From NCBI GenBank assembly GCA_964399125.1, contig CAYNPS010000001.1:20496-84495 (forward strand): DNA of 64,000 bases, in the 5' to 3' direction. A program made the position numbers and the translations under genes. Every line of letters begins with the position of its first letter. The first letter of the stretch is position 1. The DNA is from an uncultured Terriglobales bacterium. GTDB lineage: Bacteria; Acidobacteriota; Terriglobia; Terriglobales; Acidobacteriaceae. This document shows positions 10,340 to 33,164 of this stretch, one piece after another. The notes under the pieces are model-generated. The model was given only the letters and a program-made list of their open reading frames with translations. It did not search any database and was not told the DNA's origin.

Positions 10340-10345
10340 GGCGTC

Positions 10346-11050: not shown

Positions 11051-11097
11051 GGGCCTTCAGCTCCATTGGTACTTCCCTGGATCATCTTGCGTGACCG

Positions 11098-12081: not shown

Positions 12082-12083
12082 GA

Positions 12084-13802: not shown

Positions 13803-14258
13803 TTGCAGGTATCCATGCGCGTCGAATTCAAGCCTTCGTTCCTGATCGCGTTCGTCGTCCTGTCGGCCACTGTCGCAGTCTCCTTCGGACTGGAGCGCGG
13901 TTTGCTTGCCGGCGCTGTCCTAACTGCCTGTCTTTACTTACACGAGGCAGGCCATGCCATGATGTCGCTTCGCCGCAGCGTGCGAGTTACTGCCATTGGC
14001 CTCTCCGTGAAAGGCGGTTATACCGTCCGCGCCGACTCCGGCGATTGGGTCACAGAGGCTCAATCTGCAATTTCCGGTCCACTTGTGAATTTGCTGCTGG
14101 CCTGGATGTTCACCAGGATTGGGGGAGTCTACTGGCGCTGGCTCGGCACTGCCAATTTGGTGCTTGGCGTGAGCAACCTGATTCCCTTCCGCGGATCGGA
14201 TGGATGGCGCCTGTGGAGGGCGCTGCTTAGCCCGGTCACCCGTCCGAAGGAAAGTTAA
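13803..14258 (+). CDS. Small M50 (site-2 protease-like) membrane metalloprotease
   Basis: 151 aa. HEAGH sits in a TM helix, with NLIPFRGSDGWRL as the third-ligand motif (NxxPxxxxDG). It is the only plus-strand gene in the first 23 kb. Confidence 0.7.
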   Translation: MQVSMRVEFKPSFLIAFVVLSATVAVSFGLERGLLAGAVLTACLYLHEAGHAMMSLRRSVRVTAIGLSVKGGYTVRADSGDWVTEAQSAISGPLVNLLLAWMFTRIGGVYWRWLGTANLVLGVSNLIPFRGSDGWRLWRALLSPVTRPKES

Positions 14259-14300: not shown

Positions 14301-14837
14301 CTAGTGAGCAATGATCATGTCGGAAGTGCTCGATAGGGTGATGCCATTCCTCGAGACGAATGGGAACAGAAACTGGAAGTCATAGCTTACCTGCACGTGG
14401 ACGGTACAGCCGGGATAGTTGTAAGTTGTGCCGCAGAGAGTCGGGCTCGTCGACTGAACAGGCCAGGTCACGCTGGTGCTGAGGCAGCCTGATCCACCGC
14501 ATCCCGTACTGCTGCTGTTAATACCATTAGGCGCGATGCTACTTACGTAACTGCCTATGCAGGCGGAGGTGGCGTAATCAGCGCAATGGCTGTCATTCCA
14601 GCAACTCGCAATACCATCAGTATCATTCTTGCATGTTGAACCGCGAACTGCCGCATACCGACTGGCTTCACGCGCTGCGTTAGAGACGAAGTGATATGCA
14701 TAGACTGCGCGACTGAACTCGGTAATGCCTAACATCATGGTTAGCAACAGGAAACTCACTAGCGCAAATTCCACAAGCGTGCTGCCGGTTTGCTGGCTGT
14801 TCTGAGAATCTTTCCGGGATAATGATGTGATCGTCAT
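14301..14837 (-). CDS. tadE: TadE/TadF-like pseudopilin
   Basis: 178 aa. The N-terminus QQTGSTLVEFALVSFLLLTMMLGITEFSRAVYAYH is a TadE-like domain with a G/xxxxE processing motif. It overlaps the upstream tadE-like gene by 4 nt. Confidence 0.85.
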   Translation of the reverse strand: MTITSLSRKDSQNSQQTGSTLVEFALVSFLLLTMMLGITEFSRAVYAYHFVSNAAREASRYAAVRGSTCKNDTDGIASCWNDSHCADYATSACIGSYVSSIAPNGINSSSTGCGGSGCLSTSVTWPVQSTSPTLCGTTYNYPGCTVHVQVSYDFQFLFPFVSRNGITLSSTSDMIIAH

Positions 14838-15370
14838 TGCTGAATCACTCTCATAGTGGAACTTCTGGAGATAGTGATGGTTCTGGGTACGCCCGGGAAT
14901 CTGAACAATGAGTCAAACGTGCCGGACGCATTCACCGTCAACATAACTACCCAGTTCGCCCCTCCGGTGCAGGTGCCGGCCGTTGTGGTTCCGTTACAAA
15001 CTTGCGAAGTTATGGTGCCGCCACTGTCGCATCCGCAGGACGCAGAAGAGGTAACCGTGATTTGCCCACCTGCCGTACATGCGTTCGTGTCTCCCTCGAA
15101 ATCGAGGCTCGCGGCATCACAAATGCCAGTCGTGTTAACTGAAAGCGGAAGACTCTGACTACCGTAAGCAGCCCCTGCGCGCGCGGCATTTCCAACCTTA
15201 ATCCCTAGGTACGCGAAACGGCCCATCTCGACCGCCCCAATTGCGAGTGCGAGTAATAACGGCGCAACGAGGGCAACTTCAACCAAGCTCTGACCCGACT
15301 GTGAAAAGCGTTTTGCAACGGTCCTGGCGCTGCCCTGACGAAGGCTGAACGTAAAGTTTGTTGCTCTCAT
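14834..15370 (-). CDS. tadE: TadE/TadF-like pseudopilin
   Basis: 178 aa. SQSGQSLVEVALVAPLLLALAIGAVEMGRFAY is a TadE-like N-terminus. Confidence 0.85.
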   Translation of the reverse strand: MRATNFTFSLRQGSARTVAKRFSQSGQSLVEVALVAPLLLALAIGAVEMGRFAYLGIKVGNAARAGAAYGSQSLPLSVNTTGICDAASLDFEGDTNACTAGGQITVTSSASCGCDSGGTITSQVCNGTTTAGTCTGGANWVVMLTVNASGTFDSLFRFPGVPRTITISRSSTMRVIQQ

Positions 15371-15373
15371 CGA

Positions 15374-16696
15374 TTACTCCACCAAGATCGCATTCGAGAA
15401 CAAGGAAACACCGGCTGGCAACCCCGCCGAGCCTTGCAGGTTGACAGTCGGATTGCCACTCAGTGCGAGCGATTGCGCGACCACGACGGCAACACTGAAG
15501 CTGGTATTGTTCCCAAAAAAGGTAATCTGGTCACTTGGGAAGTATAAGGCGCCGTCATAGAAGCTCGCGCTATCCCCTCCCATGGTGGGGCCGTTCGGAT
15601 TGGGACCAACGTTAGTATCTGCAGGATCCTGGTACATTAGGATGCCAGCGTACGTTCCGGAACTCGGCGCTGTCAGTTTAACGTCAGGCGTGCCCGTCAT
15701 ATTCACTGTGGCTGTGCCGGTGAAATAGAAAGTGACGCCTGTCCCAGAAATGCTTGAAGTGCCGTCAACGTTTAAACCACCAGAACCGCTGATGTAGTAC
15801 AGGCCAGGGGCAAACGTCACATTTGAATTCTTACCGACATTTATCGAGTCATAAGCGCCCGGTTGCAGTGTCTGAGCCCCTTTTGCTGTCGAAACATTGC
15901 ACGCCCCATTAGCGGGACAACTTGAGGAAGCAGCAGGCTTGCTCGGAGGTGTCACTTTGGCGAGGGGGTCGCCGGAGGACGGCATTCCAGTGGCGGGGCA
16001 TGGACCAATTTGATCGGTACACGTAACCGTACCTCCGGGTCCGCTGGAAACCACTGATCCTGCGGTGCCAAAAGTCGCGGTATTCACGATGAGCTTGTTT
16101 CCCTTCGTGTTGAAATTCCCGTTATCGACAATTCCGCACGTCGTGGCATTCAGAACTGCACTGCCATTAATGTTAACGCCCTCGATGCTATCGGTCGGTT
16201 GCCCCAGTGTGTATAAACACCCGCTGTTCGGTCCACCACCGGTCACGTTCGTTGCAACGGCACGTGCAGTGAAGGTCGTCTTGTTGATACCAAGTACCTT
16301 CATGAAGTACGTGGTATTGACCTTCGCTACGAGGGCCTCCACGTACTTGCTCTTACCCGCGTGCGGTCCACTAGTGGGGGGATTGTTTACCTGCACACAT
16401 ACAGTTCCGACCGATGCAGAGGTCGTACAGTTTGAAATCGCATTGCCGCCGCTATCGCTGAATCCATTCGACGCGGCCGCATTGTATCCAGACGCCTGAA
16501 CACCGCTGCCAAATGCGAGGTCCTGCGCCGCGGCAGTAGCTGCGGAATCCGCTGCGGTCTGCTGCAGACGCTTTTCATAACGCATTACACCGGCATCAAT
16601 CGCCAAACCTACAACGGCCGTGAGAGCGACCAGTCCAGTCGCAGTAAGCACCAAAGCTTGGCCTGCTTCTTTTCTGTTTCGAATTCTGCGTATCAT
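15374..16696 (-). CDS. tadG: TadG-like pilus-associated protein
   Basis: The ORF track gives 15374..16774. I prefer the ATG at 16696, which has GGAGG 5 nt upstream. The N-terminus MIRRIRNRKEAGQALVLTATGLVALTAVVGLAIDAGVMRYEKRLQ is a TadG-type domain. The rest is rich in G/T/S/N and looks beta-helix-like. Confidence 0.8.
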   Translation of the reverse strand: MIRRIRNRKEAGQALVLTATGLVALTAVVGLAIDAGVMRYEKRLQQTAADSAATAAAQDLAFGSGVQASGYNAAASNGFSDSGGNAISNCTTSASVGTVCVQVNNPPTSGPHAGKSKYVEALVAKVNTTYFMKVLGINKTTFTARAVATNVTGGGPNSGCLYTLGQPTDSIEGVNINGSAVLNATTCGIVDNGNFNTKGNKLIVNTATFGTAGSVVSSGPGGTVTCTDQIGPCPATGMPSSGDPLAKVTPPSKPAASSSCPANGACNVSTAKGAQTLQPGAYDSINVGKNSNVTFAPGLYYISGSGGLNVDGTSSISGTGVTFYFTGTATVNMTGTPDVKLTAPSSGTYAGILMYQDPADTNVGPNPNGPTMGGDSASFYDGALYFPSDQITFFGNNTSFSVAVVVAQSLALSGNPTVNLQGSAGLPAGVSLFSNAILVE

Positions 16697-16867
16697 CGCG
16701 ACCTCCACCTCTTCTGGGGCCCTAATAGAACATCTAACCTGTAGGGGGACGGGAGCTCCGAGCCGAAAGTCCAACGAGAGTTCCGGTAATTTAGCTGGAT
16801 TCTGAACACCTTACAAGCCCTACTTCAAGTTAATCGTTAACCAAACATCACCCGAACTGCCCTACGC

Positions 16868-17776: not shown

Positions 17777-18747
17777 AGCAACATCTTCCCGGCTTGCAGT
17801 GATGGCAACCAGTTCACACCGGGCCTCGCCGCCATGATCCTCCACACGCTTACCAGTGTCTCCTGTCCCGCCTGCTCTTTCCGGTCGACTTCACTAACCA
17901 GATCCGAATAGGGCCAATCGTGCGCTGCTAGACAAAACTCCGCTATTGCTCTCGACTTTTCCCCGCGAATCCGGGCTGCCGAGGATGCTAGCCATCGCAA
18001 ACTTGCGTCACGTTCAGTGTCGGCCTGCGGACTCCACAGTAAGGCGAGGAGCGCCAGGCAAGTCATATCCACATTTGGATTGCCGGGCACTCCATAGACC
18101 ATTGGGTTACCGCTATTCCATCCACCACCCGAACACATGCGATCCTTCAACATCGCTTCTGCCAACCTGCGTCGTTTTGCAAAGCTCCTCGGCAACAAAC
18201 CCGATGGGAGATTGCGCAAAGCAATTAAGGCGCAGGCCGTAGGTTCTACCCAGCTACTCGTACCAGGTGTCCAAGTCCAACCCCGGTAAGCGCTATTCTG
18301 CTTTGAGACCGACGCTTTTCGTCGCAGCCTCTCGACAAACCGCCACCAGAATCCGCCAGCCTTCGGCCACGCGTCGCAAAGATATCCAGCAGCATGCCGA
18401 ATTAGGTGCGCCGGGCCGTTCGCCTGCTGAACCGCCAAACACGCTACGGCCGTGACCCATGCACCCTGCGTCTGCTGCGGTGCCGCCGGCCACGATCCAT
18501 CTTCAATCTGCGCGCTCACCAGATACTGCAACGCTCTCTCGCGCGCATTCACCACGTTGGGCGACCCCTGACATTGCAGGAGCGCGAGCAGTGCCCAACT
18601 GCTCGGTTCGACCCGGCTCTCCAAGCCTCCGTAATAGCCCCAGCCGCCATCTACGTTCTGCCGCCGCAACAGTAGCGCAACGTGACGCTCGGAGCTTCGA
18701 CTCTCGCTGGCTATACCATTATCTACAACTTCTTTCTCAAGCATCAT
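17773..18747 (-). CDS. Prenyltransferase / squalene-oxidase-repeat (alpha/alpha-barrel) protein
   Basis: The track ORF runs to 18786. ATG ATG at 18747/18744 overlaps the EBP stop. Repeated (D/E)GGWG / DGSW / GGGWN motifs are spaced about 50 aa apart, as in terpene-cyclase/prenyltransferase beta-subunit repeats. No signal peptide is present. Confidence 0.65.
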   Translation of the reverse strand: MMLEKEVVDNGIASESRSSERHVALLLRRQNVDGGWGYYGGLESRVEPSSWALLALLQCQGSPNVVNARERALQYLVSAQIEDGSWPAAPQQTQGAWVTAVACLAVQQANGPAHLIRHAAGYLCDAWPKAGGFWWRFVERLRRKASVSKQNSAYRGWTWTPGTSSWVEPTACALIALRNLPSGLLPRSFAKRRRLAEAMLKDRMCSGGGWNSGNPMVYGVPGNPNVDMTCLALLALLWSPQADTERDASLRWLASSAARIRGEKSRAIAEFCLAAHDWPYSDLVSEVDRKEQAGQETLVSVWRIMAARPGVNWLPSLQAGKMLL

Positions 18748-20140
18748 GAGCACTCGAGGCAGTACGGCTGTCCAACGGCTCATCAATCTCCAACTGATTG
18801 ATCAACCTGTGCAAGTATCCCCTTGCTACACCGAGACTGCGTGCACTCTTTGCCTTGCGCCAGCCGCACTCTTCGAGCGTACGCAGAATCAAGCGCCGTT
18901 TGAACCTCCTGACCTCTTCATCATAGGAGAGGCTCATCGCAGCCATTTCGTATGTGCCGCGTATCGTTTCAGGAAGGTCCCAAACGTCGATAGTGTTGGA
19001 ATCAGAAAGAACTACCAGACGGTGGACCACGTTCTCTAGTTCACGAACATTTCCTGGCCAGTTGTATTCCTCAAGCGCCTGCAGACACAGGCGCGAGAAG
19101 CGATCCACTTCCTTACCGTACTGTTTCGCGAAACGATCCAAGAACGAATAAGCTAGGATCGAAACGTCCTCGCGTCGTTCGCGCAAAGGCGGAAGATGGA
19201 TCTGAACCACATTAAGTCGGTAAAACAAGTCTTCGCGGAAACGCCCCTGCTGCATCATTTCCTCCAGATTGCGGTTGGTGGCACAGATCAGACGCAGATT
19301 CACTTTCAGAGGCGTGCTGCTGCCGAGACGCTCAAATGTACGTTCCTGCAACACCCGCAAGAATTTTGGTTGAATGCCAACACCGAGGTCGCCAACTTCG
19401 TCGAGAAAAAGAGTTCCTGAATCAGACAACTCAACACGACCACGCCGAAAAGCAACGGCGCCTGTGTACGCACCTTTTTCGTGTCCAAACAGCTCATCTT
19501 CGACCAGCGTCTCGGGCAGGTTTGCGCACGAGAAAGCCACAAACGGGTGTGAAGCGCGACCGCTATAGGCATGAATCGCACGTGCCAGCAATTCTTTGCC
19601 GGTGCCGGTTTCGCCGGTGATCAGCACACTGACATCGGATGGAGCAATCTTGCGGCACAACGAAAAGACGCGCTGCATGACGTCCGACTGCGCCAGCATC
19701 ACGTCAAACTGACCGGTGCTCTGCGGAACAGACCGAATCTGCGCCAATTCAGCTTCCAACTGACGGAGCCGGCTTGCACGCTTGAGCGTCAGTCGCAGTT
19801 CCATGATGTCCAGCGGACTGTTCAGAACATCAAACGCTCCGGATTCAATCATGCGCAGCGTGAACATCCGATCTTCACCGGGAAGAAACAGGACGATCGG
19901 AGGCACTGGATGCGTGCAGCGTGCCTTGATCTTCTGTATGAATTTGAACTGCTCTTCGGGCGGCTGCGTTATAGCTGCACTGGGAACCTGCATGAGAATG
20001 ACATCTGCAGGAGATTCTGATTCCCCTTTGGCGCCTTCTAGAGTCCTCGTCTCAAACTCAGTACCTAGAGCATTGAAAAGCACTTTCGAGAACTCAGTTT
20101 CGGAACCGGCAAAAGACACTCGAATCTTGCTTTCGGGCAT
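18737..20140 (-). CDS. Sigma-54-dependent transcriptional activator (EBP) with degenerate receiver domain
   Basis: 467 aa. Seen: Walker A GETGTGKELLARAIH, a GAYTGA loop (GAFTGA variant), Walker B LFLDEVGDL and a C-terminal Fis-type HTH (ARSLGVARGYLHRLINQL). The N-terminal REC-like fold lacks the acidic pocket. Confidence 0.9.
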   Translation of the reverse strand: MPESKIRVSFAGSETEFSKVLFNALGTEFETRTLEGAKGESESPADVILMQVPSAAITQPPEEQFKFIQKIKARCTHPVPPIVLFLPGEDRMFTLRMIESGAFDVLNSPLDIMELRLTLKRASRLRQLEAELAQIRSVPQSTGQFDVMLAQSDVMQRVFSLCRKIAPSDVSVLITGETGTGKELLARAIHAYSGRASHPFVAFSCANLPETLVEDELFGHEKGAYTGAVAFRRGRVELSDSGTLFLDEVGDLGVGIQPKFLRVLQERTFERLGSSTPLKVNLRLICATNRNLEEMMQQGRFREDLFYRLNVVQIHLPPLRERREDVSILAYSFLDRFAKQYGKEVDRFSRLCLQALEEYNWPGNVRELENVVHRLVVLSDSNTIDVWDLPETIRGTYEMAAMSLSYDEEVRRFKRRLILRTLEECGWRKAKSARSLGVARGYLHRLINQLEIDEPLDSRTASSAHDA

Positions 20141-20423
20141 CGGCGTTCCTTGCCAAAACAGGCCACGAGCTGGAGCTGGCCTGCCCTTTCACAACGGGGG
20201 GAAGTATTACTAGGTACTGCAGTTTATCTACCAGTGCCTATGGGGTGGAAATCTTATTCCTAAGTACCTGAAATGGCAACAGATTCCTGTGACCACACGA
20301 CAATTTTGCGGGGCGGATATACAGCTATGAGAAAGAAACTATGCAAGAGTTTGCACAACTAAATGGCAATCTTCTCCCCGCGTGGGGACGGAATGCTGGG
20401 GGCCGGTTGCAGTCGAAGCGGAC

Positions 20424-21683
20424 TCACGACATTGGTGGCGCTGGGCGTTCATCTACAAAGTAGTTATCGCAGGCCTGCACCAGTGCATCCCAGTTCAATT
20501 CCGGTTCTTTCCCATCGAATCGCGCCGCCCAGCGTATCTGATTCACGATATCAACCGGATAACACGCACGCAGAGCCCGGCCGTTTTGAAGAATCCACTT
20601 CCCCAGCTTGTCCACCAGGATGAAATCATAGACGATCTTATCGTCGCAGACCCGCTGGAAGATCTCGTGGAACTGCTCGGAGGTGATCGTATCCAGTTTG
20701 ATCTTGGTATGTAAACGACGCAGGAATGCCTCATCTACGAGGTCCGAAGGGGTTAGATTTGTTGCGAATATCACGAACATATCAAACGGAACTTCAATCT
20801 TCTTCCCGCCCACAATCGTCAGAAAATCAATTCGTCGGTCAAGAGGCACCACCCAGCGATTCAACAGCTCGACCGGTCTGATCCTTTGCCTGCCTAAATC
20901 ATCAACGATCAGGAGGCCGTTATTGGCTTTCATCTGAATTGGGGCCGAGAAGAATTTCGTGGTGGGGTTAAAGTCCAGATCGAGCATGTCAAAGCTCAGT
21001 TCCCCGCCCACCAACATGCGAGGACGACGGCAGCAAACCCATCGTGCATCCACCACCTCCTCTTCCTGATCCGCGACTTCTTCGTGAACGCCGGCATCGA
21101 ACACAGTAATAATCTGGCCGTCTACTTCCACGGCATAAGGGATATAGATCTTGTCACCAGCAAAAGCCCAACCGAGGCTCTCGGCGACGCTGCTTTTTCC
21201 CGATCCAGTCGAACCGTACAGGAAAATCGATCTGCCCGAAGCCATCGCGGTTCCCAGCTTCCGTACAGTGGCTTTCTCCAGAACGAGATGCTGTAGCGCT
21301 TTCTCAATCTTCCCAGCATCGATGTCGAGGTTAGTGACGGTTTGTAGTCGCACGCGATTGTTGTACTCCCGCAACGACACCGGTGCCGGCCCTACGAATT
21401 GATTCTGCGAGAGGTATTCGATTGCGCGTTCGCGCCCCTGGGTGGTGAGCGTAATTCTGTGCAATGGGCCCGACATTCCGGTGACTTCACAAAGCTGATC
21501 TTTGCGAAAACGCAAGAAAAGGTGCTCGATGATGGCCTCATCGACATGCATCTTTGTGGCGAGATCTAGAACATTGCACTCCCCGGCATAGTAAAGCGTT
21601 TTTAGCGCCAGCTCCTCGACTACCCGCCGGTTAATCCCCAACTCGTCGATTGTGGTTGGCTTTGGAAGGGTTGCGGTGTCCAT
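20424..21683 (-). CDS. P-loop/AAA+-type ATPase with N-terminal helical (wHTH-like) domain
   Basis: 419 aa. Seen: Walker A LYGSTGSGKSS, Walker B GLLIVDDLGRQ and a C-terminal block FVIFATNLTPSDLVDEAFLRRLHTKIKL. It lies 40 nt downstream of the PilZ-TonB gene. Confidence 0.75.
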   Translation of the reverse strand: MDTATLPKPTTIDELGINRRVVEELALKTLYYAGECNVLDLATKMHVDEAIIEHLFLRFRKDQLCEVTGMSGPLHRITLTTQGRERAIEYLSQNQFVGPAPVSLREYNNRVRLQTVTNLDIDAGKIEKALQHLVLEKATVRKLGTAMASGRSIFLYGSTGSGKSSVAESLGWAFAGDKIYIPYAVEVDGQIITVFDAGVHEEVADQEEEVVDARWVCCRRPRMLVGGELSFDMLDLDFNPTTKFFSAPIQMKANNGLLIVDDLGRQRIRPVELLNRWVVPLDRRIDFLTIVGGKKIEVPFDMFVIFATNLTPSDLVDEAFLRRLHTKIKLDTITSEQFHEIFQRVCDDKIVYDFILVDKLGKWILQNGRALRACYPVDIVNQIRWAARFDGKEPELNWDALVQACDNYFVDERPAPPMS

Positions 21684-21723: not shown

Positions 21724-23100
21724 TTAATGCGGCAAGATGTTGAACGTAACCTTAATCCGGATATCGCCTGCGACCGGTTTCCCGTTTTCTACGTAGGGCT
21801 TATACCTCCAGTGCCGTACCGCGTCCATAACCGCGGCGGCAAGTACGGAGTTCCCGCTCAGGAGATTCAACCCGCTGACCGCACCGTCCTTATCTATATT
21901 TGCCAATACCACTACAGAGCCATCAATCTCACTCTGAAGCGCTACTGGCGGATAAGCCGGAGTTTGATAAATTTCCGGGGCGCGGCCGGACAACTCAGAG
22001 GAAAGCGTCCCTGACGAATCGGCGGTGCGCAGGAGGCGAAGCGAAGTATCCGGAGTTGCCCATTGGAACGGAATGGGGCGGGTCGGATTGGCTCGCACGA
22101 TGAGGGTCTGTCGATTGCCTTGAATCCGAAAACGCCACATCGCCAAAGGTGGCGCACTCGGAACCAGCACCTGCTCCAATGCCGGTGTCGCGGGGGCCCG
22201 GGTCAGGGTGGTTTTTTCCGTCTTGTCCTTGCTCCTAGTGCTTGCACCCGCGACTTTCTTGTTATCTGCAGGCGGGGATAGCTTCGTTTGTTCGGCGCTA
22301 GAGTCGTTGTTACTCAAAGCTCTTCTAACCCAAGCCGGAACGGTTCCATCCTCAAGAGCGTTCTTTTTAAACTGTCCCAGTGAAGCTTCGATTCTCTGCT
22401 GTGCCACTTGAAACGCGCTATGGCGTCCGTAAGAATATAGCCCAGCTAAAAGAATTAAGAAAACCAGGCTCACGCCCCCAGCAACTGCAGTGATCTTCTC
22501 GCGTTTGCTCAACTTTCCGAGTTGAGTCCTCGCTGCAGAAACCCAAGTCCGCGTTTCGGTTTCAATCGTCTTAAATTGAAATGCAGAACGCAGCTCTCCA
22601 ACTTCATCTGCCTTACCTGCCTCGATGGGAACTTCGTCCTGCACCGCGGCATTTTCCGAATCCGCAGGCACCGCTTTGGGTTCTGAATCTGCTTTTGCTG
22701 TTTTTGGCAAAGCTGCTGATTTCTGGCTTGATGCTTGGTTTACCTTTTCAGACGCCAGCCAATTTCTTAAAAGGGTCCGTCCTTCCGGTGAAAAATTCAG
22801 AAGACGTGCACCAGCAATTTCACCCGATTCGTCCGTCCAAGCGACTTGTCCCTCGGATGTGATCGGCACCTTTGAACCGGGCAGTTCCATTCGCAGCTGT
22901 ATCTTCTGGCCTACTTGGACAGGAGAAATGGCCTGGAATGCCAGGCCACCATCACTGAGGTTGACCAAAATTCCCCCATTCTCGGTATCGAGACTGAGAT
23001 ACGTAAACGGACAGGCATAACGCGGCATGGCACGGCGGTCGCGGATCACGGTTCGTCCTTTCCGCCACTGTGATTCTCCAAAACACAGATCAAGTGGCAA
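21724..23100 (-). CDS. PilZ domain - TM helix - TonB C-terminal domain fusion protein
   Basis: 458 aa. The N-terminus carries RRAMPR (RxxxR) and NLSDGG ((D/N)xSxxG), the c-di-GMP-binding PilZ motifs. A central TM helix is ITAVAGGVSLVFLILLAGLYSY. The C-terminus YPPVALQSEIDGSVVVLANIDKDGAVSGLNLLSGNSVLAAAVMDAVRHWRYKPY is a TonB_C fold signature. Confidence 0.85.
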   Translation of the reverse strand: MPLDLCFGESQWRKGRTVIRDRRAMPRYACPFTYLSLDTENGGILVNLSDGGLAFQAISPVQVGQKIQLRMELPGSKVPITSEGQVAWTDESGEIAGARLLNFSPEGRTLLRNWLASEKVNQASSQKSAALPKTAKADSEPKAVPADSENAAVQDEVPIEAGKADEVGELRSAFQFKTIETETRTWVSAARTQLGKLSKREKITAVAGGVSLVFLILLAGLYSYGRHSAFQVAQQRIEASLGQFKKNALEDGTVPAWVRRALSNNDSSAEQTKLSPPADNKKVAGASTRSKDKTEKTTLTRAPATPALEQVLVPSAPPLAMWRFRIQGNRQTLIVRANPTRPIPFQWATPDTSLRLLRTADSSGTLSSELSGRAPEIYQTPAYPPVALQSEIDGSVVVLANIDKDGAVSGLNLLSGNSVLAAAVMDAVRHWRYKPYVENGKPVAGDIRIKVTFNILPH

Positions 23101-23268
23101 TACTCGTCGTTAGCGCTCGTTCACTTCAAACCGCGATAGAATGGCAACCTATTTCCCCCGGTTGCAAACTGTTGCGCAACCAAATTTCCGATAACCACCT
23201 ATTGCACCTAGCTATTTTGTACAAAAATCTCCCGCGCCCGATTGGCAAACGCCAGAACGTAACTCTTG

Positions 23269-23463
23269 TCAGCTGATCGTTTGTCTGTGCTGCCGTGCAT
23301 CCTTGAGCATGTGCCTTTGCGCCTTTCTGGTTGCTTTCGCACGCTGTTGCGCAGCTCTAGCCTGGGCAGGGACTGGATATTTGTGCGGCTGTTTCGGGTA
23401 CTTGACGCGTGCGCATAGTGGCAAACTTGCGATCAAGAACAGGAAAACTAGAAGACGTTTCAA
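23269..23463 (-). CDS. Small secreted basic protein (hypothetical)
   Basis: 64 aa with a TTG start preceded by GGGAGG. The signal-peptide-like N-terminus is KRLLVFLFLIASLPLCA, followed by a Lys/Arg/Gln-rich tail. Confidence 0.4.
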   Translation of the reverse strand: MKRLLVFLFLIASLPLCARVKYPKQPHKYPVPAQARAAQQRAKATRKAQRHMLKDARQHRQTIS

Positions 23464-24129
23464 AGGGCAAGCCTCCCTCTACATCGGAAAAGGCAGGATT
23501 TCCAACTGGGTACAAGCAAGTGGCATGCCATTTAAATACATTAGCCGGTGGTCCCGAAATCCAGTGTCTAGGATTGGCTGTGCTCCAGCCATGTAAGCTA
23601 ATGAACGCGGCGGTAAGGTTGCTTTGTACTCTTTTGGATACAGTGCCGTCCCGAGTCACGAGCGGCGAGTGTTTGCCGAGATGCCTGCCTAGAACCAGCT
23701 AAGATTATGATTGCAGAGAGTTCAACCCTACTCTAAATCATGCTAAATGCTATCTGAAATAAAGAGAAAACGGCCGGTTCATTATTCTCGGCAAGTAACT
23801 TGCAACTTTGTTTATTGACTGGATCTGAAGCAATGGCGCTGCCTGGAGCAGAAAACTTTCCGACAGAAACGCGATAGGTTGCAATCGAAGATGGTCTGGA
23901 CAAGCCCAGGAACACGTCATCCGAACGGTTGAGTGCGGCGACGGCTCGAAGCTTCGTCGTTTCAGCCGCTCTTGCGAACCTGCATGGGGCCGGTTGCAAT
24001 CGGATGTCGGGTTTTAATCAGCTGTACGGCGAGACTGGTCCGGATGTTTTTTGTTTTGCATTGCTATAGACAGCTCGCCCGATGACCCTAGTCCACTTTG
24101 GTGATCCTGAACAGAAGGAGTGCTTTCGA

Positions 24130-24417
24130 ATGCCTTTCAGGTCTGCATTCTTGATCGTTGCCGCTGGACTGGCTTTGCATGTTCCATTTCTGTGGACGTG
24201 CCTTGCATTAACCGGGTATCTCGGGTGCGCTGCACTCGACAAGTGGTTGGCGAAGCTCGCCAAAGACAAACTGTACGAAGACGAATTGGTTGGATGGAAC
24301 ACAGATAAGGGCAACACCGAATACGAAGGAAATGGTCGTTATCATCGCAGGCGACTCCCCGAAACAGATGAAATTGTGGTCACAAGGATCGCAGACCTGC
24401 TGAGAAAGATGCTATGA
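24130..24417 (+). CDS. Hypothetical small membrane protein
   Basis: The track ORF starts at 24082. The ATG at 24130 has an AAGGAG Shine-Dalgarno. It encodes two hydrophobic helices and then a charged tail. No family was recognised. Confidence 0.4.
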   Translation: MPFRSAFLIVAAGLALHVPFLWTCLALTGYLGCAALDKWLAKLAKDKLYEDELVGWNTDKGNTEYEGNGRYHRRRLPETDEIVVTRIADLLRKML

Positions 24418-24630
24418 CTGCGTCACTACACAGCCGATGGCGCCGCCTCTCTGAAACAATGCGACAGTTCCGGCAATGTTCACTCAGAACACGGGTAGTC
24501 AATAGAGATACACTCTCGCGTGCATCTTTTGGCCCCGGAAGGCTTCCCAGTTGCCTACCGATGTGAAATTGGTTCGGAGTGCGGGGTGTGAGCGCGATGA
24601 GGTCTGCAGTATGTCCGTTTTGGTTATTTG

Positions 24631-24954
24631 CTAGTTCTTCGGATCCTGGGAAGGCTTTGCGGGAGGTACCCGAACTGTTCTTTTGTGTGGAAGCTTAGGT
24701 GCCTTCTGTGCCACTGCTTTGGTCTGTGGCACTGCGGATTGGGGTGCTGTTTCAATTGGGGAGTAGCCCCGAAGTGCCCAATAGGCACCGCAAGTGGCCA
24801 GGACCCCCATAACCAGAAAGAGCAAGAAACGGCCGAGATTTCCGAAAATGGATAGTCTAATGAATTGCCAGAGCGGTACGTAAATCTCTAAGGAGAAAAA
24901 AAGAATGAAGAAAGTCGCGAGTGCCGCCAGAGCCCAAAGCGCGTTGGTTTCCAT
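24631..24954 (-). CDS. Hypothetical membrane protein
   Basis: 107 aa with GAGGTGG upstream of the ATG. It has three hydrophobic segments and a Pro/Lys-rich C-terminus. Confidence 0.5.
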   Translation of the reverse strand: METNALWALAALATFFILFFSLEIYVPLWQFIRLSIFGNLGRFLLFLVMGVLATCGAYWALRGYSPIETAPQSAVPQTKAVAQKAPKLPHKRTVRVPPAKPSQDPKN

Positions 24955-25164
24955 ACAACCACCTCGCGTGTGTGGCCCGACATCCCTGCGATACTAACGC
25001 CTATTGCAGCGGGTCGCAATTCGGACCTTAGGCGTCTTTTACAGTTTTGATTCCTCCGGAGGGTGGATCCGCCACACACAAAGCTTCAGACTTTGGCCGT
25101 TAGTTCGAACTTTAAGCTCTTGATTGGAAGGTGGCGAGTGGTCTTGAGCGACCTTCAATGCGGC

Positions 25165-26016
25165 CTATCGGCTTACATTCTTTCTGGCGTACATTGCCTT
25201 ATCAGCTTCATCGAGGACCTCGTCCAGGGTCATGCCATCTTGCCATTGTGCGATGCCGATACTGAAGGAGAACTTAGAGTCGCGCAAGACTCCTGAACAA
25301 TTCCATCCTTCAATTGCAGAGTTTATGCGCTCTTCCACTGCCCGCGCACCCTCGAGTCCCGTTCCGGGCAAGATCAGCAAAAACTCATCTCCCCCATAGC
25401 GAACGATCGCATCACTGCCGCGAACGGCTCCTTTCATCAAGGCTGCGAACTCAGCTAGAACCAAGTCTCCCGTAAGATGGCCGAACAGTGTGTTGATCTG
25501 CTTGAATCGATCCAGATCCATGAGCATAAACAGTAGACGCGTGTTGAAACGCCGTGCCTGACTGATGTACCGGCCCGCCATTTCCTCGAGCGAACGGCGG
25601 TTATATACCTCGGTTAGCGGATCAGTAAAAGACTGGAGACGTGTCAGCTCACTCTGGATGGTTTGCGAGATTAACTGTTGGCGTGTGTTCCTCAACTCGA
25701 AGCGCCTCGCGGCCAGATACGTATTTATTACGATTATCAATGCAAGCAAGCCGAAGAAGACGTTTTTGCTTACCTGCAACTCGAAATGAAAGTTCCCCTC
25801 TGTCAGAAAAGCCGCCGGGAACAACACAACTAACATTCCGAGACCGATCAGCGTCCCGCTCAGTAAGGTAAAAACCCAGACGTCTGTGTCCCGCTTCTGG
25901 ATGGAGGAAAGTTGCTCGCTCAGTTTCGTTACGAAGTTGTTCGTTCGGCAGGCCTGAACCGTGGGAGAGGATGTCGTCGATCCGAATTGTCTTGCTGCCT
26001 GCGATTGCGGCAGCAA
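25165..26016 (-). CDS. Membrane-anchored diguanylate cyclase (GGDEF) with intact I-site
   Basis: 283 aa with two N-terminal TM helices. Seen: DPLTEVYNRRSLEE, active site RYGGDEFLLIL, and RGSD (RxxD) five residues before GGDEF. Confidence 0.9.
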   Translation of the reverse strand: MLPQSQAARQFGSTTSSPTVQACRTNNFVTKLSEQLSSIQKRDTDVWVFTLLSGTLIGLGMLVVLFPAAFLTEGNFHFELQVSKNVFFGLLALIIVINTYLAARRFELRNTRQQLISQTIQSELTRLQSFTDPLTEVYNRRSLEEMAGRYISQARRFNTRLLFMLMDLDRFKQINTLFGHLTGDLVLAEFAALMKGAVRGSDAIVRYGGDEFLLILPGTGLEGARAVEERINSAIEGWNCSGVLRDSKFSFSIGIAQWQDGMTLDEVLDEADKAMYARKNVSR

Positions 26017-26628: not shown

Positions 26629-28398
26629 ATGAAGCGTACGGGCAAAGTGTATTCAATCGCTGTCGTCATTCTGTTTTTAATTGCAGTCACCCGAGCATTT
26701 GCTCAGGCTCCAGTCAAAGACGATGCCTACATTACATCCGCCAGTGCCGGAAGCAATTTCGGCGGCAACGCTTCACTAGTCGTACAAACAGGCACTGCCT
26801 CGGGCAGCAACATCTGCAACCTAGGCAGTTGCAGTTATATCCGGTTTGATCTCAGTCGTCTTCCAAGTGGCCTGACAAAGGATCTGGTCTCGAAGGCCAC
26901 CGTAAAACTGTATCTCACCGCGGTGACTGCAAGTGGAAGTTTTGATGTCATTGAGGTCGGCGGCACTTCGCAGAACTGGTCGGAATCCACGCTCACTTAT
27001 AGCGCGCAGCCGAGCTCCGTGGTCCAGGTCCTCCAAACAGGTATTTCCGTCCCCAGCACAAGTTCGAAGTACCAGTATATTGAAGTCGACATCACAGCTG
27101 CGGTGAAAGACTGGCTTTCCGGCACTGTCTACAACAACGGTATCGTGATTCGGCCCTCCAGTGGATCTTCAATCTCCGCAACCTTCAGCTCGAAGGAAGA
27201 CTCAACCTACAGCCATGATCCCGAGCTGAACATTGTTTTCAGTCAAGCGGCATCACAGATTGTCGGAACCATTGCTCCCAGCCAGATTGGTCCCGGTACT
27301 GCAAACATCAATATCAGCGGGAACGCTGCCACCGCAACTTTAGCCACTGGCCTGAGCAACCCGTTGCCTGGGCAGTGTCCAATGGGGCAATTCGCCGGTG
27401 GCATTACGAACACGGGCAATGTTGCGAGTTGCGGGGCACCATCCGCAACGAGTCTTTCCGGTGTGGTTCCGATCACGTCTGGCGGCACCGGCGCAACCAC
27501 AGCCCCAGGAGCTCTCTTGAACCTCGGTGGATTGACCAGCTCCGCCCTCGCCACCAAGGCCGACATCACCGCTCCGGTGAAAGTCGACCAGACCGCACAG
27601 GCCAATGGCGCCTGTGCGACCGCGAACGCGGTCGTGCTGAACCCTACCCAGCCCGCCGGACAGCAGGTCTTTGTCTGCCACCAGAATCAAGATCAATCCC
27701 TGACCTGGATATCGGTGAACGACGAGACTTCCCTGCAGCAGCAGATCGCGGCACTGACGACCAACTCAGCAACCGCCGCCGCGGCTCTCAATGCTGAGAT
27801 TCAGCGCGCCGAAGCAGCCGAGGCCACATTGACGACCAATCTCAACAAGGAGGTCACTCGCGCAACCGGTGCCGAGCAGACACTGACCACGAATCTCAAT
27901 GCCGAAGTGACCCGCGCGACGACCGCAGAGTCGGCGAATTTGGCCACAGCAAAGAGCTATACCGACATTTCCGTGAGCGCCGAGACGAACCGCGCCCAGG
28001 CAGCCGAATCGAGCTTGAGTAATGGTATCGGTTCCGTTACTTCGAGCCTCACGAGTGAAGTCGCCCGAGCGACCACAGCCGAGGCTGGTTTGCAAACGGG
28101 CTTCACCAACGGGCTGGCAACGAAGGCCGATATTAACGCTCCCATACAGGTCGACATGACCGTAACCGCCGGAACGGCTTGTACATCGGTGAATGCCATC
28201 CGGCTGAACCCGTCGCAGGCTGCTGGCCAGCAGGTGTTCGTTTGCCAGGACAATGGCAGCACAAAAATTTGGGGATCACTTAATGACGAGGCTGCGTTGC
28301 AAGCACAGGTGAACACGCTGCAGAGCAATAGTGGAACGCAACAAAGCGCGCTTAGCGCCGAAACTGCGGCTCGCATCGCCGGAGACAACAAGCTCTAA
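26629..28398 (+). CDS. Segment 1/3 of a large repetitive secreted fibre/adhesin-like protein (signal peptide plus DNRLRE/CBM-like beta-sandwich plus coiled-coil repeats)
   Basis: 589 aa with a GGAGG Shine-Dalgarno and signal peptide IAVVILFLIAVTRAFA/QAP. The N-domain pattern is D.AYI......NFGG...L.V...IRFDLS.LP...ATVKLYL...W.ES.LTY..QP...DIT.AVKDW..G...NNGIVI. Repeats of the form L(T/S)xE(V/T)xRAxxAE follow. The frame ends at TAA 28396..28398, while the same motif continues in the -1 frame. Confidence 0.75.
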   Translation: MKRTGKVYSIAVVILFLIAVTRAFAQAPVKDDAYITSASAGSNFGGNASLVVQTGTASGSNICNLGSCSYIRFDLSRLPSGLTKDLVSKATVKLYLTAVTASGSFDVIEVGGTSQNWSESTLTYSAQPSSVVQVLQTGISVPSTSSKYQYIEVDITAAVKDWLSGTVYNNGIVIRPSSGSSISATFSSKEDSTYSHDPELNIVFSQAASQIVGTIAPSQIGPGTANINISGNAATATLATGLSNPLPGQCPMGQFAGGITNTGNVASCGAPSATSLSGVVPITSGGTGATTAPGALLNLGGLTSSALATKADITAPVKVDQTAQANGACATANAVVLNPTQPAGQQVFVCHQNQDQSLTWISVNDETSLQQQIAALTTNSATAAAALNAEIQRAEAAEATLTTNLNKEVTRATGAEQTLTTNLNAEVTRATTAESANLATAKSYTDISVSAETNRAQAAESSLSNGIGSVTSSLTSEVARATTAEAGLQTGFTNGLATKADINAPIQVDMTVTAGTACTSVNAIRLNPSQAAGQQVFVCQDNGSTKIWGSLNDEAALQAQVNTLQSNSGTQQSALSAETAARIAGDNKL

Positions 28399-28406
28399 CT
28401 ACCAAC

Positions 28407-30083
28407 TTGAGCAATGAGGTCACTCGTGCAACCAGTGCCGAAACAAGCCTGACTACTAACATCGCTGCCGAAGCATCACGTGCCCAGGCTGCAGAGACAA
28501 CCGTCGCCGCCAACGTGGTGACGGAATCGAACCGTGCGCAGAATGCCGAATCCACACTGACGCAGAGTGTCAGTGCAGAAACGACTCGCGCCATGACCGC
28601 CGAAGCCACCAAGGCCGACATCATCGCTCCGGTGAAAGTCGACCAGGCCGCACAGGCCAATGGCACCTGTGCGACCGCGAACACGGTCGTGCTGAACCCG
28701 ACCCAGCCCGCCGGACAGCAGGTCTTTGTCTGCCACCAGAATCAAGATCAATCCCTGACCTGGATATCGGTCAACGACGAGACCTCCCTGCAGCAGCAGA
28801 TCGCGGCACTGGCGACCAACTCAGCAACCGCCGCCGCCGCTCTCAATGCTGAGATTCAGCGCGCCGAAGCAGCCGAGGCCACATTGACGACGAATCTCAA
28901 CAACGAGGTCACTCGCGCAACCGGTGCCGAGCAGACACTGACCACGAATCTCCATGCCGAAGTGACCCGCGCGACCACCGCTGAGTCGGCGAATTTGGCC
29001 ACAGCAAAGAGCTACACCGACGCTTCCGTCAACACCGAAGCCACTCGTGCTCAGGGCGCCGAAACGACACTGACTACCAACATCGCTGCCGAAGCATCAC
29101 GTGCCCAGGCTGCAGAGACAACCGTCGCCGCCAACGTGGTGACGGAATCGAACCGTGCGCAGAATGCCGAATCCACACTGACGCAGAGTGTCAGTGCAGA
29201 AACGACTCGCGCCATGACCGCCGAAGCCACCAAGGCCGACATCATCGCTCCGGTGAAAGTCGACCAGGCCGCACAGGCCAATGGCACCTGTGCGACCGCG
29301 AACACGGTCGTGCTGAACCCGACCCAGCCCGCCGGACAGCAGGTCTTTGTCTGCCACCAGAATCAAGATCAATCCCTGACCTGGGTATCGGTGAACGACG
29401 AGACCTCCCTGCAGCAGCAGATCGCGGCACTGACGACCAACTCAGCAACTGCCGCCGCGGCTCTCAATGCTGAGATTCAACGCGCCGAAGCAGCCGAGGC
29501 CACACTGACGACGAATCTCAACAACGAGGTCACTCGCGCAACCGGTGCCGAGCAGACACTGACCACGAATCTCCATGCCGAAGTGACCCGCGCCACGACC
29601 GCTGAAGCCAGCACATTAAGCTCAGCTAAGAGTTACACCGATGCTTCCGTCAATACCGAAGCCACTCGTGCGCAAAGCGCGGAAGCCGCTTTGAACAGTA
29701 CGATCGGCAGTGTTAGCACGAGCCTCAGCTCTGAAGTCAGCCGAGCTACAACTGCTGAAGCAGCACTGCAGGCTTCGGAGGCGACAAAAGCGGATGCGAA
29801 GACTCCCATCCTCGCGGTGAGCACTTTGGTTTCAACTGATTGCGTTCCATCGAATGCCAATCGCGTAGTCCTGCTCAGCTCTTCGCAGCAGATTTACATC
29901 TGCAAGGACAATGGAGACAACACCGCGTCGTGGGTCCTCGCGAATAACATCGATTCGGGATCTATTACCAACAGCCAATTACAACATAATTCCTTGACCG
30001 TGGCCGCGGGCAGCGGATTGGCGGGTGGCGGTTCAGTTGCGCTGGAGGAGCGACCACCCTCTCGGTTGCCCCCGGAGGCATAA
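28407..30083 (+). CDS. Segment 2/3 of the same repetitive protein
   Basis: 558 aa. It continues ...ALTTNLSNEVTRATSAE in phase with the segment-1 repeats. It contains two 207-aa near-identical tandem units. Confidence 0.75.
   Translation: MSNEVTRATSAETSLTTNIAAEASRAQAAETTVAANVVTESNRAQNAESTLTQSVSAETTRAMTAEATKADIIAPVKVDQAAQANGTCATANTVVLNPTQPAGQQVFVCHQNQDQSLTWISVNDETSLQQQIAALATNSATAAAALNAEIQRAEAAEATLTTNLNNEVTRATGAEQTLTTNLHAEVTRATTAESANLATAKSYTDASVNTEATRAQGAETTLTTNIAAEASRAQAAETTVAANVVTESNRAQNAESTLTQSVSAETTRAMTAEATKADIIAPVKVDQAAQANGTCATANTVVLNPTQPAGQQVFVCHQNQDQSLTWVSVNDETSLQQQIAALTTNSATAAAALNAEIQRAEAAEATLTTNLNNEVTRATGAEQTLTTNLHAEVTRATTAEASTLSSAKSYTDASVNTEATRAQSAEAALNSTIGSVSTSLSSEVSRATTAEAALQASEATKADAKTPILAVSTLVSTDCVPSNANRVVLLSSSQQIYICKDNGDNTASWVLANNIDSGSITNSQLQHNSLTVAAGSGLAGGGSVALEERPPSRLPPEA
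28437..29678 (+). repeat. Two tandem 621-bp coding repeats, near-identical
   Basis: Unit 1 is about 28437..29057 and unit 2 about 29058..29678. 28458..28763 shows no mismatch by eye against 29079..29384. The track shows identical antisense ORFs at 28476..28751 and 29097..29372, offset by 621. A third, roughly 410-bp partial copy lies at 27556..27965. Confidence 0.9.
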
Positions 30084-30091
30084 CGCCTTCG

Positions 30092-30454
30092 ATGGTCAGC
30101 ACCGGCACCTACAACATTGAGATCTCCGGTAATGCCGGAACGGTGAGCAATGGTGTTTACACAACCGGTTCCTACGTCAACCCGAACTGGATCGCTTACC
30201 TGGACGGCAGCAAAGTGACAGGGGTCGTGGCCAATGCAACGAATGCCGCCAACGCAGCCTTCGCGACGACAGCCGCCACATCAGCTAATTTTAGTGGCTC
30301 TCTCAATGGCGACATCACTGGCGCGCAGGGCGCAACGGTTGTAACCAGCATCGGCGGTATTGCCGCGACCAACTTCGCGCGTACCGATGTTGGAAACATT
30401 TTCGCTGCGGGCACTCATTCAAATACCTCGCTCGAAAGAGCTTTTGTTGAATAG
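30092..30454 (+). CDS. Segment 3/3 of the same repetitive protein (C-terminal region)
   Basis: 120 aa. Upstream, the frame reads GGATTLSVAPGGITPSMVSTGTYNIEISGNAGT, which continues ...SGLAGGGSVAL of segment 2 after a 1-nt shift near 30044. Confidence 0.65.
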   Translation: MVSTGTYNIEISGNAGTVSNGVYTTGSYVNPNWIAYLDGSKVTGVVANATNAANAAFATTAATSANFSGSLNGDITGAQGATVVTSIGGIAATNFARTDVGNIFAAGTHSNTSLERAFVE

Positions 30455-30632
30455 GTCCGATGCAGTGCGGCAGATTGAGAGTTGCTCCGCCATCATCCAA
30501 CTCTGGCAGAAGAATGAGACAAATCAAAGCAGACCTCACCCTAAGCAATCTCGGGTTGTGGTCCGATTGTCAGAAGCTTATCCAACGAAACCGTGAGTTC
30601 GTTAAGCATCGCTCGTGGAACGGTAGTTCTCT

Positions 30633-30958: not shown

Positions 30959-31011
30959 GGATGGTGCCGTAGAACGCCTCTCACATGCAGAACACGGATG
31001 GAAAGAAAAAA

Positions 31012-31031
31012 GCCGCCCGGAGGCGGCTTCG
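31012..31031 (-). terminator. Rho-independent terminator of the 31055..31804 gene
   Basis: The minus strand reads AAGCCGCC-TCCG-GGCGGCTT followed by TTTTTCTTTCC. Confidence 0.75.
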
Positions 31032-31054
31032 CTTGGAATAACGGAAAGGCTGTA

Positions 31055-33153: not shown

Positions 33154-33164
33154 ACGCGAACCCA

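Follow-up and report, generated by a model that had tools for sequence, protein, structure and literature searches.

A gene on the minus strand of the 64-kb window (the whole stretch of Terriglobales DNA analyzed here) encodes a fusion protein in which a cytoplasmic PilZ domain is joined through a single transmembrane (TM) helix to a periplasmic TonB C-terminal (TonB_C) domain. The PilZ domain is predicted to bind cyclic di-GMP (c-di-GMP), and the C-terminal domain is a true TonB_C domain, but the remainder of the protein, judged from its sequence, fails the applicable tests for a transducer coupled to ExbB and ExbD (ExbBD) and does not look like one. We propose, with about even confidence and by analogy with Alg44 of Pseudomonas aeruginosa or GltJ of Myxococcus xanthus, that the fusion acts as an adaptor through which c-di-GMP reaches a surface machine, in this case the Tad pilus. 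Although its domains and overall logic are familiar, the combination is undescribed and uncharacterized in the literature searched. The protein may be viewed either as a PilZ receptor whose output spans the envelope or, equally, as a TonB-fold adaptor fed by a second messenger. The gene and its parts are located as follows (aa, amino acids; ORF, open reading frame).

21724 to 23049, minus strand: coding sequence of the PilZ-TM-TonB_C fusion, 441 aa from GTG at 23049 (the maximal ORF reaches TTG at 23100)
22753 to 23037, minus strand: cytoplasmic PilZ domain, aa 5 to 99 of the 441-aa protein (Pfam, AlphaFold, Foldseek)
23020 to 23034, minus strand: RxxxR c-di-GMP-binding motif (R6-A-M-P-R10, with R5 before it; alignment of relatives)
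22945 to 22962, minus strand: (D/N)xSxxG c-di-GMP-binding motif (N30-L-S-D-G-G35; alignment of relatives)
22429 to 22494, minus strand: single TM helix, aa 186 to 207, N-in/C-out (hydropathy 2.43)
21964 to 22428, minus strand: periplasmic spacer, aa 208 to 362, a helix continuing from the TM helix and then a disordered Ala/Ser/Thr/Lys-rich stretch
21736 to 21963, minus strand: periplasmic TonB_C domain, aa 363 to 438 (Pfam, profile, Foldseek)

The maximal ORF (21724 to 23100, minus strand; 458 aa from TTG), from which an earlier sequence-only reading had described the protein, is present as given there. The GTG at 23049 appears to be the likelier true start, yielding the 441-aa protein P0001, because GGAAAGGA lies 6 nucleotides (nt) 5' of it, the public gene calls of the identical protein begin at this codon, and the equivalent residue is the start in most of 13 aligned relatives, in which the N-terminus reads M-I/V-R-D-R-R. 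These include P0017 and P0018, the closest two full-length ones. The RxxxR motif is kept when translation starts at the GTG.

The PilZ domain scores 38.8 bits against Pfam PF07238 (cut-off, 22.5; aa 22 to 116 of the 458-aa ORF). The two c-di-GMP motifs named in the sequence-only reading, RRAMPR and NLSDGG, are both found, and NLSDGG begins 20 residues after R10; the spacing criterion for PilZ receptors places (D/N)xSxxG about 20 to 27 residues after RxxxR. R10, N30, and G35 never vary among the 13 aligned relatives, each of which has one PilZ domain, and the conservation of R5, R6, and S32 is at least 90%. From this alignment, AlphaFold gives a confident model of the PilZ barrel (pLDDT score, 75 to 88) with strands within aa 17 to 84 and a C-terminal helix at aa 88 to 107, in line with the six-stranded barrel and helix expected of PilZ. 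When the PilZ part was compared with the PDB by Foldseek, it matched the PilZ domain of Alg44 with bound c-di-GMP (4rt1/4rt0; TM-score of about 0.70), and the PilZ domains of MotI, YcgR, BcsA, and MapZ were also among the matches. Alg44 is likewise the sole PDB match by sequence (E = 0.07), with NLSDGG aligned to DLSAGG, and is thus the closest solved PilZ domain by both sequence and fold. A canonical, cytoplasm-facing PilZ domain with both motifs intact is strongly supported, and binding of c-di-GMP is predicted.

Hydropathy and the AlphaFold model agree on one TM helix (ITAVAGGVSLVFLILLAGLYSY), as had been proposed. An invariant Arg (R183) and a KLSKREK stretch lie on its cytoplasmic side, and the topology is N-in/C-out, this Arg and the Lys/Arg cluster preceding the helix. 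In the model, the TM helix runs on into a longer helix, and two disordered linkers join the PilZ and TonB_C domains. The cytoplasmic linker and the periplasmic spacer of the sequence-only reading are present; however, the spacer is hardly Pro-rich as stated there, being Ala/Ser/Thr/Lys-rich with a Pro content of 8% (5 to 18% in the fusion family; the canonical TonBs have a median of 17%). For the linker, described there as acidic/Lys-rich, the composition is Ala/Glu/Lys-rich. The spacer includes a short conserved β-hairpin segment (WRFRIQGNRQTLIV), and its length is sufficient for crossing the periplasm. A flexible periplasmic tether of approximately 150 residues between the TM helix and TonB_C is strongly supported by these predicted features.

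The TonB_C domain scores 57.9 bits against Pfam PF03544 (cut-off, 24.6; aa 380 to 455 of the 458-aa ORF), the NCBIfam model tonB_Cterm concurs, and the pLDDT of this region is 86 to 92; both domain assignments of the sequence-only reading therefore stand. The best-fitting structure in the PDB is the C-terminal domain (CTD) of P. aeruginosa TonB bound to the transporter FoxA (6i97_D; Foldseek TM-score = 0.85), and a profile of the 13 relatives matches Vibrio anguillarum TonB2 (1e-15) and Escherichia coli TonB (1.5e-12). The canonical features of TonB_C (the YP motif, SG, and W-x-Y-x-P) are present, and the domain is about 50% identical to the C-terminal domains of exbBD-linked acidobacterial TonBs. 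The TonB_C fold binds partner proteins by β-strand addition.

All of these likenesses, together with the TonB topology (N-in, one TM helix, long spacer, CTD), favor an alternative in which the protein is a genuine TonB paralog that is energized in trans by ExbB-ExbD, uses the Ton boxes of TonB-dependent transporters, and has its transport function (uptake or Oar-type secretion) switched by c-di-GMP via the PilZ domain. We consider this alternative quite unlikely on the basis of a comparison with 80 control loci from a metagenome scan, which were matched via TonB_C alone. No TonB_C domain in that scan is more closely related to the window's domain than theirs, none is fused to PilZ, and the TonBs are approximately 245 aa long. 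Of the 80 control loci, 68 contain a gene for MotA_ExbB (Pfam, 116 bits) and 49 contain one for ExbD (Pfam, 90 bits), whereas in the 64-kb window and in all PilZ-TonB_C loci the same queries gave no exbB or exbD match with E<0.1. As the sequence-only reading had stated, exbB and exbD are absent from the window according to Pfam scans of all non-nested ORFs of at least 150 aa and tblastn searches with acidobacterial ExbB and ExbD. The small ORFs in the gaps at 30083 to 31055, 33153 to 34218, and 37702 to 38633 include no plausible exbD. Nor was any MotA_ExbB-family gene of the TolQR/AglRQS motor type found in the window, and no TonB-dependent transporter is encoded in the window or beside the approximately eight fusion genes whose contexts were examined. 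The 1,048-aa ORF at 42242 to 45388 was considered as such a transporter and rejected, as it has no transporter or β-barrel match and its only PDB matches by sequence are weak ones to heparinase II (E of about 0.01).

The TM helix also separates the two groups. In the control TonBs it is highly conserved, e.g., SF(I/V)LQVxLIGxLVLIPLIFTE, and a signature drawn post hoc from this control set itself, [QE]...P[LYM][LIV][FY][TS][EDQ], is present in 68 of 69 canonical TonBs but in none of 78 fusions and in 1 of 86 other TonB_C proteins. The TM helix of the window protein lies approximately 185 residues from the N-terminus. We judge that the fusion is not an ExbBD-powered TonB because no exbBD is found nearby, the TM signature is missing, and the Pro content of the spacer is below the canonical median; the decay of TonB_C in the relative P0017, described below, also speaks against a working TonB. 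A TM-helix His of the E. coli H20 type was tried as a further test and proved non-discriminating, since the canonical acidobacterial TonBs also lack it; among the fusions, a His in the TM helix is not conserved (16 of 78). As a separate observation, the TM helix of the control TonBs (L012 to L091; soil and peat metagenomes) is nearly invariant and has a mid-helix Gln/Glu and a PLI(F/Y)TE end instead of the His-containing motif of E. coli, and the genes often lie with exbB, exbD, secDF, yajC, and tgt.

The closeness of TonB_C to genuine TonB C-terminal domains, combined with the absence of the energy-coupling TM signature, would also fit a c-di-GMP-controlled decoy that occupies Ton boxes and lowers transport in sessile cells; in E. 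coli, transport is inhibited by C-terminal fragments of TonB in the periplasm. A related possibility is a decaying neutral fusion, with which the fast evolution of the protein relative to its neighbors would agree. Both are highly improbable. Conservation of the c-di-GMP motifs and of the TonB_C core in at least 78 diverged clusters argues for selection, and a decoy would leave the placement in pilus and exopolysaccharide (EPS) clusters unexplained.

The size of the family emerged from a search of the full-length query against 1.84 billion representative proteins, in which the hits and word-index hits amounted to 165 proteins that were classified by domain-specific phmmer and a hydropathy scan. 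A PilZ(x1-3)-TM-TonB_C architecture is present in at least 78 sequence clusters among the top matches, 33 of them with one PilZ domain and 38 with two in tandem, and in most of the 78 at least one PilZ domain retains RxxxR and (D/N)xSxxG. Twelve more clusters, annotated by Pfam with both PilZ and TonB_C, came from another word-index search that used the alignment. The fusion is therefore not the rarity that the sequence-only reading may have taken it for. Members are named "TonB family protein" or "PilZ domain-containing protein" in the databases, and the few for which an organism is given belong to Candidatus Acidiferrum or Candidatus Acidiferrales, both of which are Acidobacteriota. By these matches, the fusion is a widespread acidobacterial family that is catalogued yet unnamed. 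No paper on a PilZ-TonB_C fusion was found in the literature searched, and Galperin and Chou, who surveyed PilZ architectures, make no mention of TonB (10.1101/814665). A scan of the genome collection with the alignment of the relatives returned three loci and no true PilZ-TonB_C fusion: L001 and L002 encode PilZ-TM proteins with another domain, and L003 encodes a short PilZ protein.

Related arrangements appeared in the same search sets. A REC-like domain is joined through a TM helix to TonB_C in P0309, and an M56/BlaR1 peptidase is joined to TonB_C in P0005 and P0013. The proteins at L001 4372 to 5712 and L002 7901 to 9241, both from Acidobacteriota, carry after PilZ and the TM helix a periplasmic domain of no known type that contains Cys, and those at L041 and L044 (1142 to 2008) have PilZ with two C-terminal TM helices. 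The pattern suggests that PilZ as a cytoplasmic input module and TonB_C as a periplasmic output module have been shuffled among proteins.

Among known systems, Alg44, the alginate co-polymerase of P. aeruginosa and the other PilZ-TM-periplasmic protein known, shares with the fusion an N-terminal cytoplasmic PilZ domain (RxxxR and DxSxxG), one TM helix, and a periplasmic output domain, and a family member with two PilZ domains lies in an exopolysaccharide cluster. However, the periplasmic part of Alg44 is an HlyD/MFP domain whereas the fusion has only TonB_C (Pfam), and the fusion gene heads a Tad pilus regulatory block, not a polysaccharide synthase operon. The TonBs of E. coli and P. aeruginosa and TonB2 of V. 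anguillarum resemble the fusion in the sequence and fold of the CTD and in the succession of TM anchor, long spacer, and CTD; in contrast, the fusion has a cytoplasmic extension of about 185 residues with PilZ, lacks exbBD linkage and the TM signature, and has a spacer lower in Pro than the canonical median.

The GltG and GltJ proteins of Myxococcus have cytoplasmic signaling domains and TonB-CTD-like periplasmic domains that contact periplasmic or outer-membrane parts of a machine (PMC11761067). The likeness to these proteins of the M. xanthus Agl-Glt gliding system is one of architecture only: a cytoplasmic signaling domain, one TM helix, and a TonB-CTD-like domain at the end of a disordered tether. 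Their inputs are ZnR/GYF or FHA domains instead of PilZ, no sequence relationship is detectable beyond the TonB_C fold, and they work with the TolQR-like AglRQS motor, whereas no such motor gene lies near the fusion. In P. aeruginosa, type IV pili depend on TonB3 for their production and localization, and contact of TonB3 with the N0 domain of the secretin was suggested (PMC5285504). As a TonB-family protein that serves pili, TonB3 of the TonB3-PocAB system parallels the proposed link to the Tad secretin; unlike the fusion, it lacks a PilZ domain and works with PocA and PocB, which are homologues of ExbBD, and the pili are type IVa, not Tad. LapD of Pseudomonas fluorescens also relays cytoplasmic c-di-GMP binding across the inner membrane to a periplasmic output, which controls an adhesin. 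It differs in its degenerate GGDEF-EAL input, its LapG-binding periplasmic output, and its two TM helices with a HAMP relay.

The link to the Tad pilus rests on the genes around the fusion and on their counterparts in relatives, above all in L092, a locus on a 618-kb metagenomic contig that carries P0017 (locus L092/L093).

20424 to 21683, minus strand: AAA+ ATPase with an N-terminal winged-helix-like domain, 419 aa; 40-nt gap from the fusion gene and a GGAGG ribosome binding site
18737 to 20140, minus strand: sigma-54 enhancer-binding protein with a degenerate receiver domain
14301 to 16774, minus strand: TadG, TadE, and TadE minor-pilin genes, a syntenic block common to L092
507 to 8369, minus strand: core Tad genes, namely two flp, prepilin peptidase, CpaB, CpaC, CpaE, CpaF, TadB, and TadC
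7903 to 8079 and 8181 to 8369, minus strand: tandem Flp-type pilin genes, 58 and 62 aa, with the motif EEGQDLVE(Y/H)A
25165 to 26016, minus strand: membrane-anchored GGDEF diguanylate cyclase, 2 kb upstream of the fusion gene, with GGDEF and the I-site intact
L092 9278 to 10564, L097 7001 to 8272, and L098 7001 to 8272: ATPase homologues

The fusion gene is the 5'-most in a 22-kb stretch of genes on the minus strand that includes the Tad cluster. In the order of transcription, the fusion is followed by the AAA+ ATPase, the sigma-54 activator, a squalene-cyclase-like protein, a DUF362 protein, TadG, and two TadE; then by orf554 (a polytopic membrane protein), a GT2 protein, a methyltransferase, a PMT_2 glycosyltransferase, and the two flp pilins; and finally by the prepilin peptidase, CpaB, the CpaC secretin, CpaE, CpaF, TadB, and TadC. 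Because only 40 nt separate them, the fusion and ATPase genes are probably co-transcribed, in keeping with the operon that the sequence-only reading had described, and the location between the Tad/sigma-54 genes and the GGDEF cyclase is also as it had described. The receiver domain of the activator has Gln (His in L092) in place of the phospho-accepting Asp, and because this Asp is missing, the activator probably answers to an input other than phosphorylation. Against the PEP-CTERM response-regulator model it scores 378 bits, which is under the cut-off of 502.6.

P0017, the most similar representative from the full-length search for which DNA was available, is 40% identical to the window fusion, and in L092 its gene is followed, after a 47-nt gap, by the ATPase and then by the sigma-54 activator, TadG, TadE, and TadE; the order continues with an M50-like gene on the opposite strand, a homologue of orf554, and PMT_2. 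The identities between the window and L092 are 79% for the ATPase, 75% for the activator, 68% for the M50-like protein, and 52% for both TadG and orf554. The proposed Tad/sigma-54 connection is thus retained in this relative, while the GGDEF neighbor is not conserved in L092. In P0002, which is 63% identical to the window fusion, the next gene begins 40 nt downstream, at the end of the contig, and the gene call starts after RxxxR.

The ATPase belongs to a family of more than 7,000 clusters that are typically 55 to 60% identical and about 415 aa long, to which no curated Pfam or NCBIfam family corresponds. Its closest folds are an uncharacterized hexamer of Pyrococcus furiosus (8p49) and the ATPase domain of archaeal LonB (4zpx). 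Tad genes accompany the ATPase in two further loci: in L097, from a Terriglobales genome, the order is ATPase-activator-TadE-TadE-TadG-Flp-peptidase (CpaA)-CpaB-CpaC, and in L098 the ATPase follows TadA-TadB-TadC. The ATPase of L099 has no such company and lies approximately 6 kb upstream of rpoN. The ATPase may be an undescribed accessory or regulatory ATPase of the Tad system.

The adaptor proposal takes the following form. The fusion would be a single-pass receptor of the inner membrane that acts as a signaling or tethering adaptor without ExbBD power. When c-di-GMP binds to the PilZ domain, probably in dimeric form as with Alg44, the protein would alter its state or its partners at the membrane and so couple the level of the second messenger to a cell-surface machine. 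In the window, the outcome would be a lineage-specific input of c-di-GMP into the production or assembly of Tad pili, a reading adopted because the fusion adjoins a Tad-associated ATPase and sits upstream of the activator and minor-pilin genes. It is supported by the fusion-ATPase-activator-TadG-TadE-TadE order in L092/L093 and by the Tad linkage of the ATPase family in L097 and L098. The signal could travel by a cytoplasmic route, via the ATPase/activator pair, by a route through a periplasmic or outer-membrane partner of TonB_C, e.g., the CpaC secretin, or by both. The sequence-only reading had named the Tad secretin or an EPS or PEP-CTERM export element as a possible target of such a relay. 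Paralogous members of the family appear to serve exopolysaccharide export in the same way. The surface-polymer theme is supported by P0047, a relative with two PilZ domains whose gene lies in the middle of a Wzz/AAA_22 ATPase/epimerase/GT4/Wzy exopolysaccharide cluster, in the same way on three long contigs, and by P0021, which has a synthase-like GT2 gene and a TPR gene about 6 kb away on the same short contig. The surface-structure role put forward in the sequence-only reading gains from the P0047 cluster.

Besides the closeness of its TonB_C to genuine TonB domains and the post hoc origin of the TM signature, several observations weigh against this proposal. The fusion diverges faster than its neighbors (40% identity between the window and L092/L093, compared with 75 to 79%). 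In P0017, the one other Tad-linked relative with a complete sequence, the PilZ domain is above its cut-off, but TonB_C has lost the YP motif and scores 20.7 bits, which is below the cut-off of 24.6. Docking in the periplasm may thus be dispensable there, and the case for outer-membrane docking as the key output in the Tad setting is weakened. The module of L097 has no fusion, whereas those of the window and L092/L093 do, and the fusion is therefore dispensable for the ATPase-activator-Tad module and is an accessory, not a core, Tad part. No surface-structure genes are present in four of the approximately eight fusion contexts examined. P0018, P0037, P0049, and P0109 lie in unrelated contexts, so that the AAA+ neighbor is not a general partner of the fusions and its tie is limited to the window's own orthologous group. 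On our reading, the family has radiated into paralogous groups; that of the window was added in its own lineage to a regulatory module of the Tad system that is itself conserved, and at least one other is tied to exopolysaccharide synthesis.

The rival explanations are more specific spellings of single readings. In one of them, the protein is mainly a regulator that faces the cytoplasm: PilZ would recruit or sequester the AAA+ ATPase, the sigma-54 activator, or both, and so tune Tad transcription, while TonB_C would be an envelope anchor or localization device or would act as an inward-directed periplasmic sensor like those of FecR-type regulators. PilZ is better conserved than TonB_C between the window protein and P0017 (55% compared with 38% identity), and this difference and the sub-threshold TonB_C of P0017 are why the cytoplasmic route is favored in the Tad setting. 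The gene spacing, which suggests tight operon coupling with the ATPase, and the activator receiver without its phospho-accepting Asp, which needs another input, point the same way, as do the candidate sigma-54-type promoters that precede flp, orf554, and the gene for the activator (two are conserved in L092). Nevertheless, as the whole explanation we find this doubtful: L097 has the ATPase-activator pair without a fusion, a contact of PilZ with the ATPase or the activator is purely hypothetical, and TonB_C is strongly conserved across the wider family, because of which a specific periplasmic partner is favored in general. A more far-reaching version of the adaptor proposal envisages a widespread acidobacterial class of "inside-out" c-di-GMP receptors, in which, as c-di-GMP rises, a motor-free TonB_C would dock on the periplasmic N-domains of outer-membrane export channels, e.g., CpaC or EPS porins, and thereby license the export of pili or polysaccharide. 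We regard this version as unlikely; if true, it would represent a new output logic for PilZ and for the TonB fold.

c-di-GMP governs the switch to surface-attached life, and Acidobacteriota are among the most abundant soil bacteria. To our knowledge, few receptors carry the c-di-GMP signal across the inner membrane, the main examples being Alg44, BcsA-associated systems, and LapD, and acidobacterial c-di-GMP effectors are essentially unstudied. The family described here (at least 78 diverged clusters among the top matches) pairs a canonical c-di-GMP sensor with an outer-membrane-docking fold, and its members in pilus and exopolysaccharide clusters offer a testable route to the control of attachment and matrix export. 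The family is also a further piece of evidence for reuse of the TonB_C fold as an envelope-spanning adaptor outside nutrient uptake, for which GltG/GltJ and TonB3 are published cases; the REC-TM-TonB_C and M56-TonB_C proteins point to the same reuse. Were the protein an ordinary TonB paralog after all, it would still show c-di-GMP control of TonB-dependent transport, which was not found described in the literature searched.

The 2-kb gap between the GGDEF and fusion genes (23100 to 25165) contains only small ORFs without Pfam matches. These include a 64-aa ORF at 23269 to 23463 (minus strand) with a signal-peptide-like N-terminus, a 107-aa membrane protein at 24631 to 24954 (minus strand), and a 111-aa ORF at 24082 to 24417 (plus strand). 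A 64-aa gene is called at the equivalent place on the contig of P0002; however, the 64-aa ORF was rejected as a conserved partner, as it has no sequence match in L092. Rfam gave no match, e.g., to a c-di-GMP riboswitch, in the whole window or in the gap at 23000 to 25300. One candidate promoter lies in this gap.

23515 to 23530, minus strand: candidate sigma-54 promoter TGGCATGCCACTTGCT, 466 nt upstream of the GTG, a 10-of-11 match

This site is not conserved in L092, and sigma-54 matches over the whole window are at the level of chance (33 found, 36.8 expected). Other candidates of the sigma-54 type (GG-N10-GC), all on the minus strand, are located at 8424 to 8439 (55 nt upstream of flp), 14066 to 14081 (about 318 nt upstream of orf554), and 20218 to 20233 (78 nt upstream of the activator gene). 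The orf554 and activator sites are kept in position and sequence in L092 (14837 to 14852 and 10701 to 10716, respectively), and the Tad locus of L097 has 18 sigma-54 matches against 8.2 expected. Such a distribution suggests a sigma-54 regulon comprising the Tad cluster, in which the activator is autoregulated.

Within the Tad gene run, the 184-aa ORF at 7787 to 8341, which overlaps the two flp genes, is spurious. The block at 8678 to 13748 (minus strand) places orf554, which has no Pfam match, the GT2 protein, the methyltransferase, and PMT_2 (GT-C) between the minor pilins and flp. Its arrangement from orf554 to PMT_2 is common to L092, it lies 3' of a conserved sigma-54-like promoter, and it may be a pilin glycosylation module. 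Three PEP-CTERM-tagged proteins and a complete Wzx/Wzy-type exopolysaccharide cluster are encoded at 31055 to 35243 and 45455 to 63959; the cluster comprises a priming Bac_transf protein, several GT4 and GT2 proteins, a Wzx flippase, Wzy_C, and acyl- and methyltransferases. Because of these PEP-CTERM proteins and this cluster, the window can be described as a surface-structure island. The 1,048-aa protein at 42242 to 45388 is heparinase-like. On the plus strand, adjacent ORFs of 589 and 558 aa at 26629 to 30083, the first with a CBM96 domain, are packed with long and nearly identical internal repeats, in which T-R-A-x-x-A-E and "NPTQPAGQQVFVC" units abound, and the two may represent a repetitive surface or fiber protein split by a frameshift or a stop codon.

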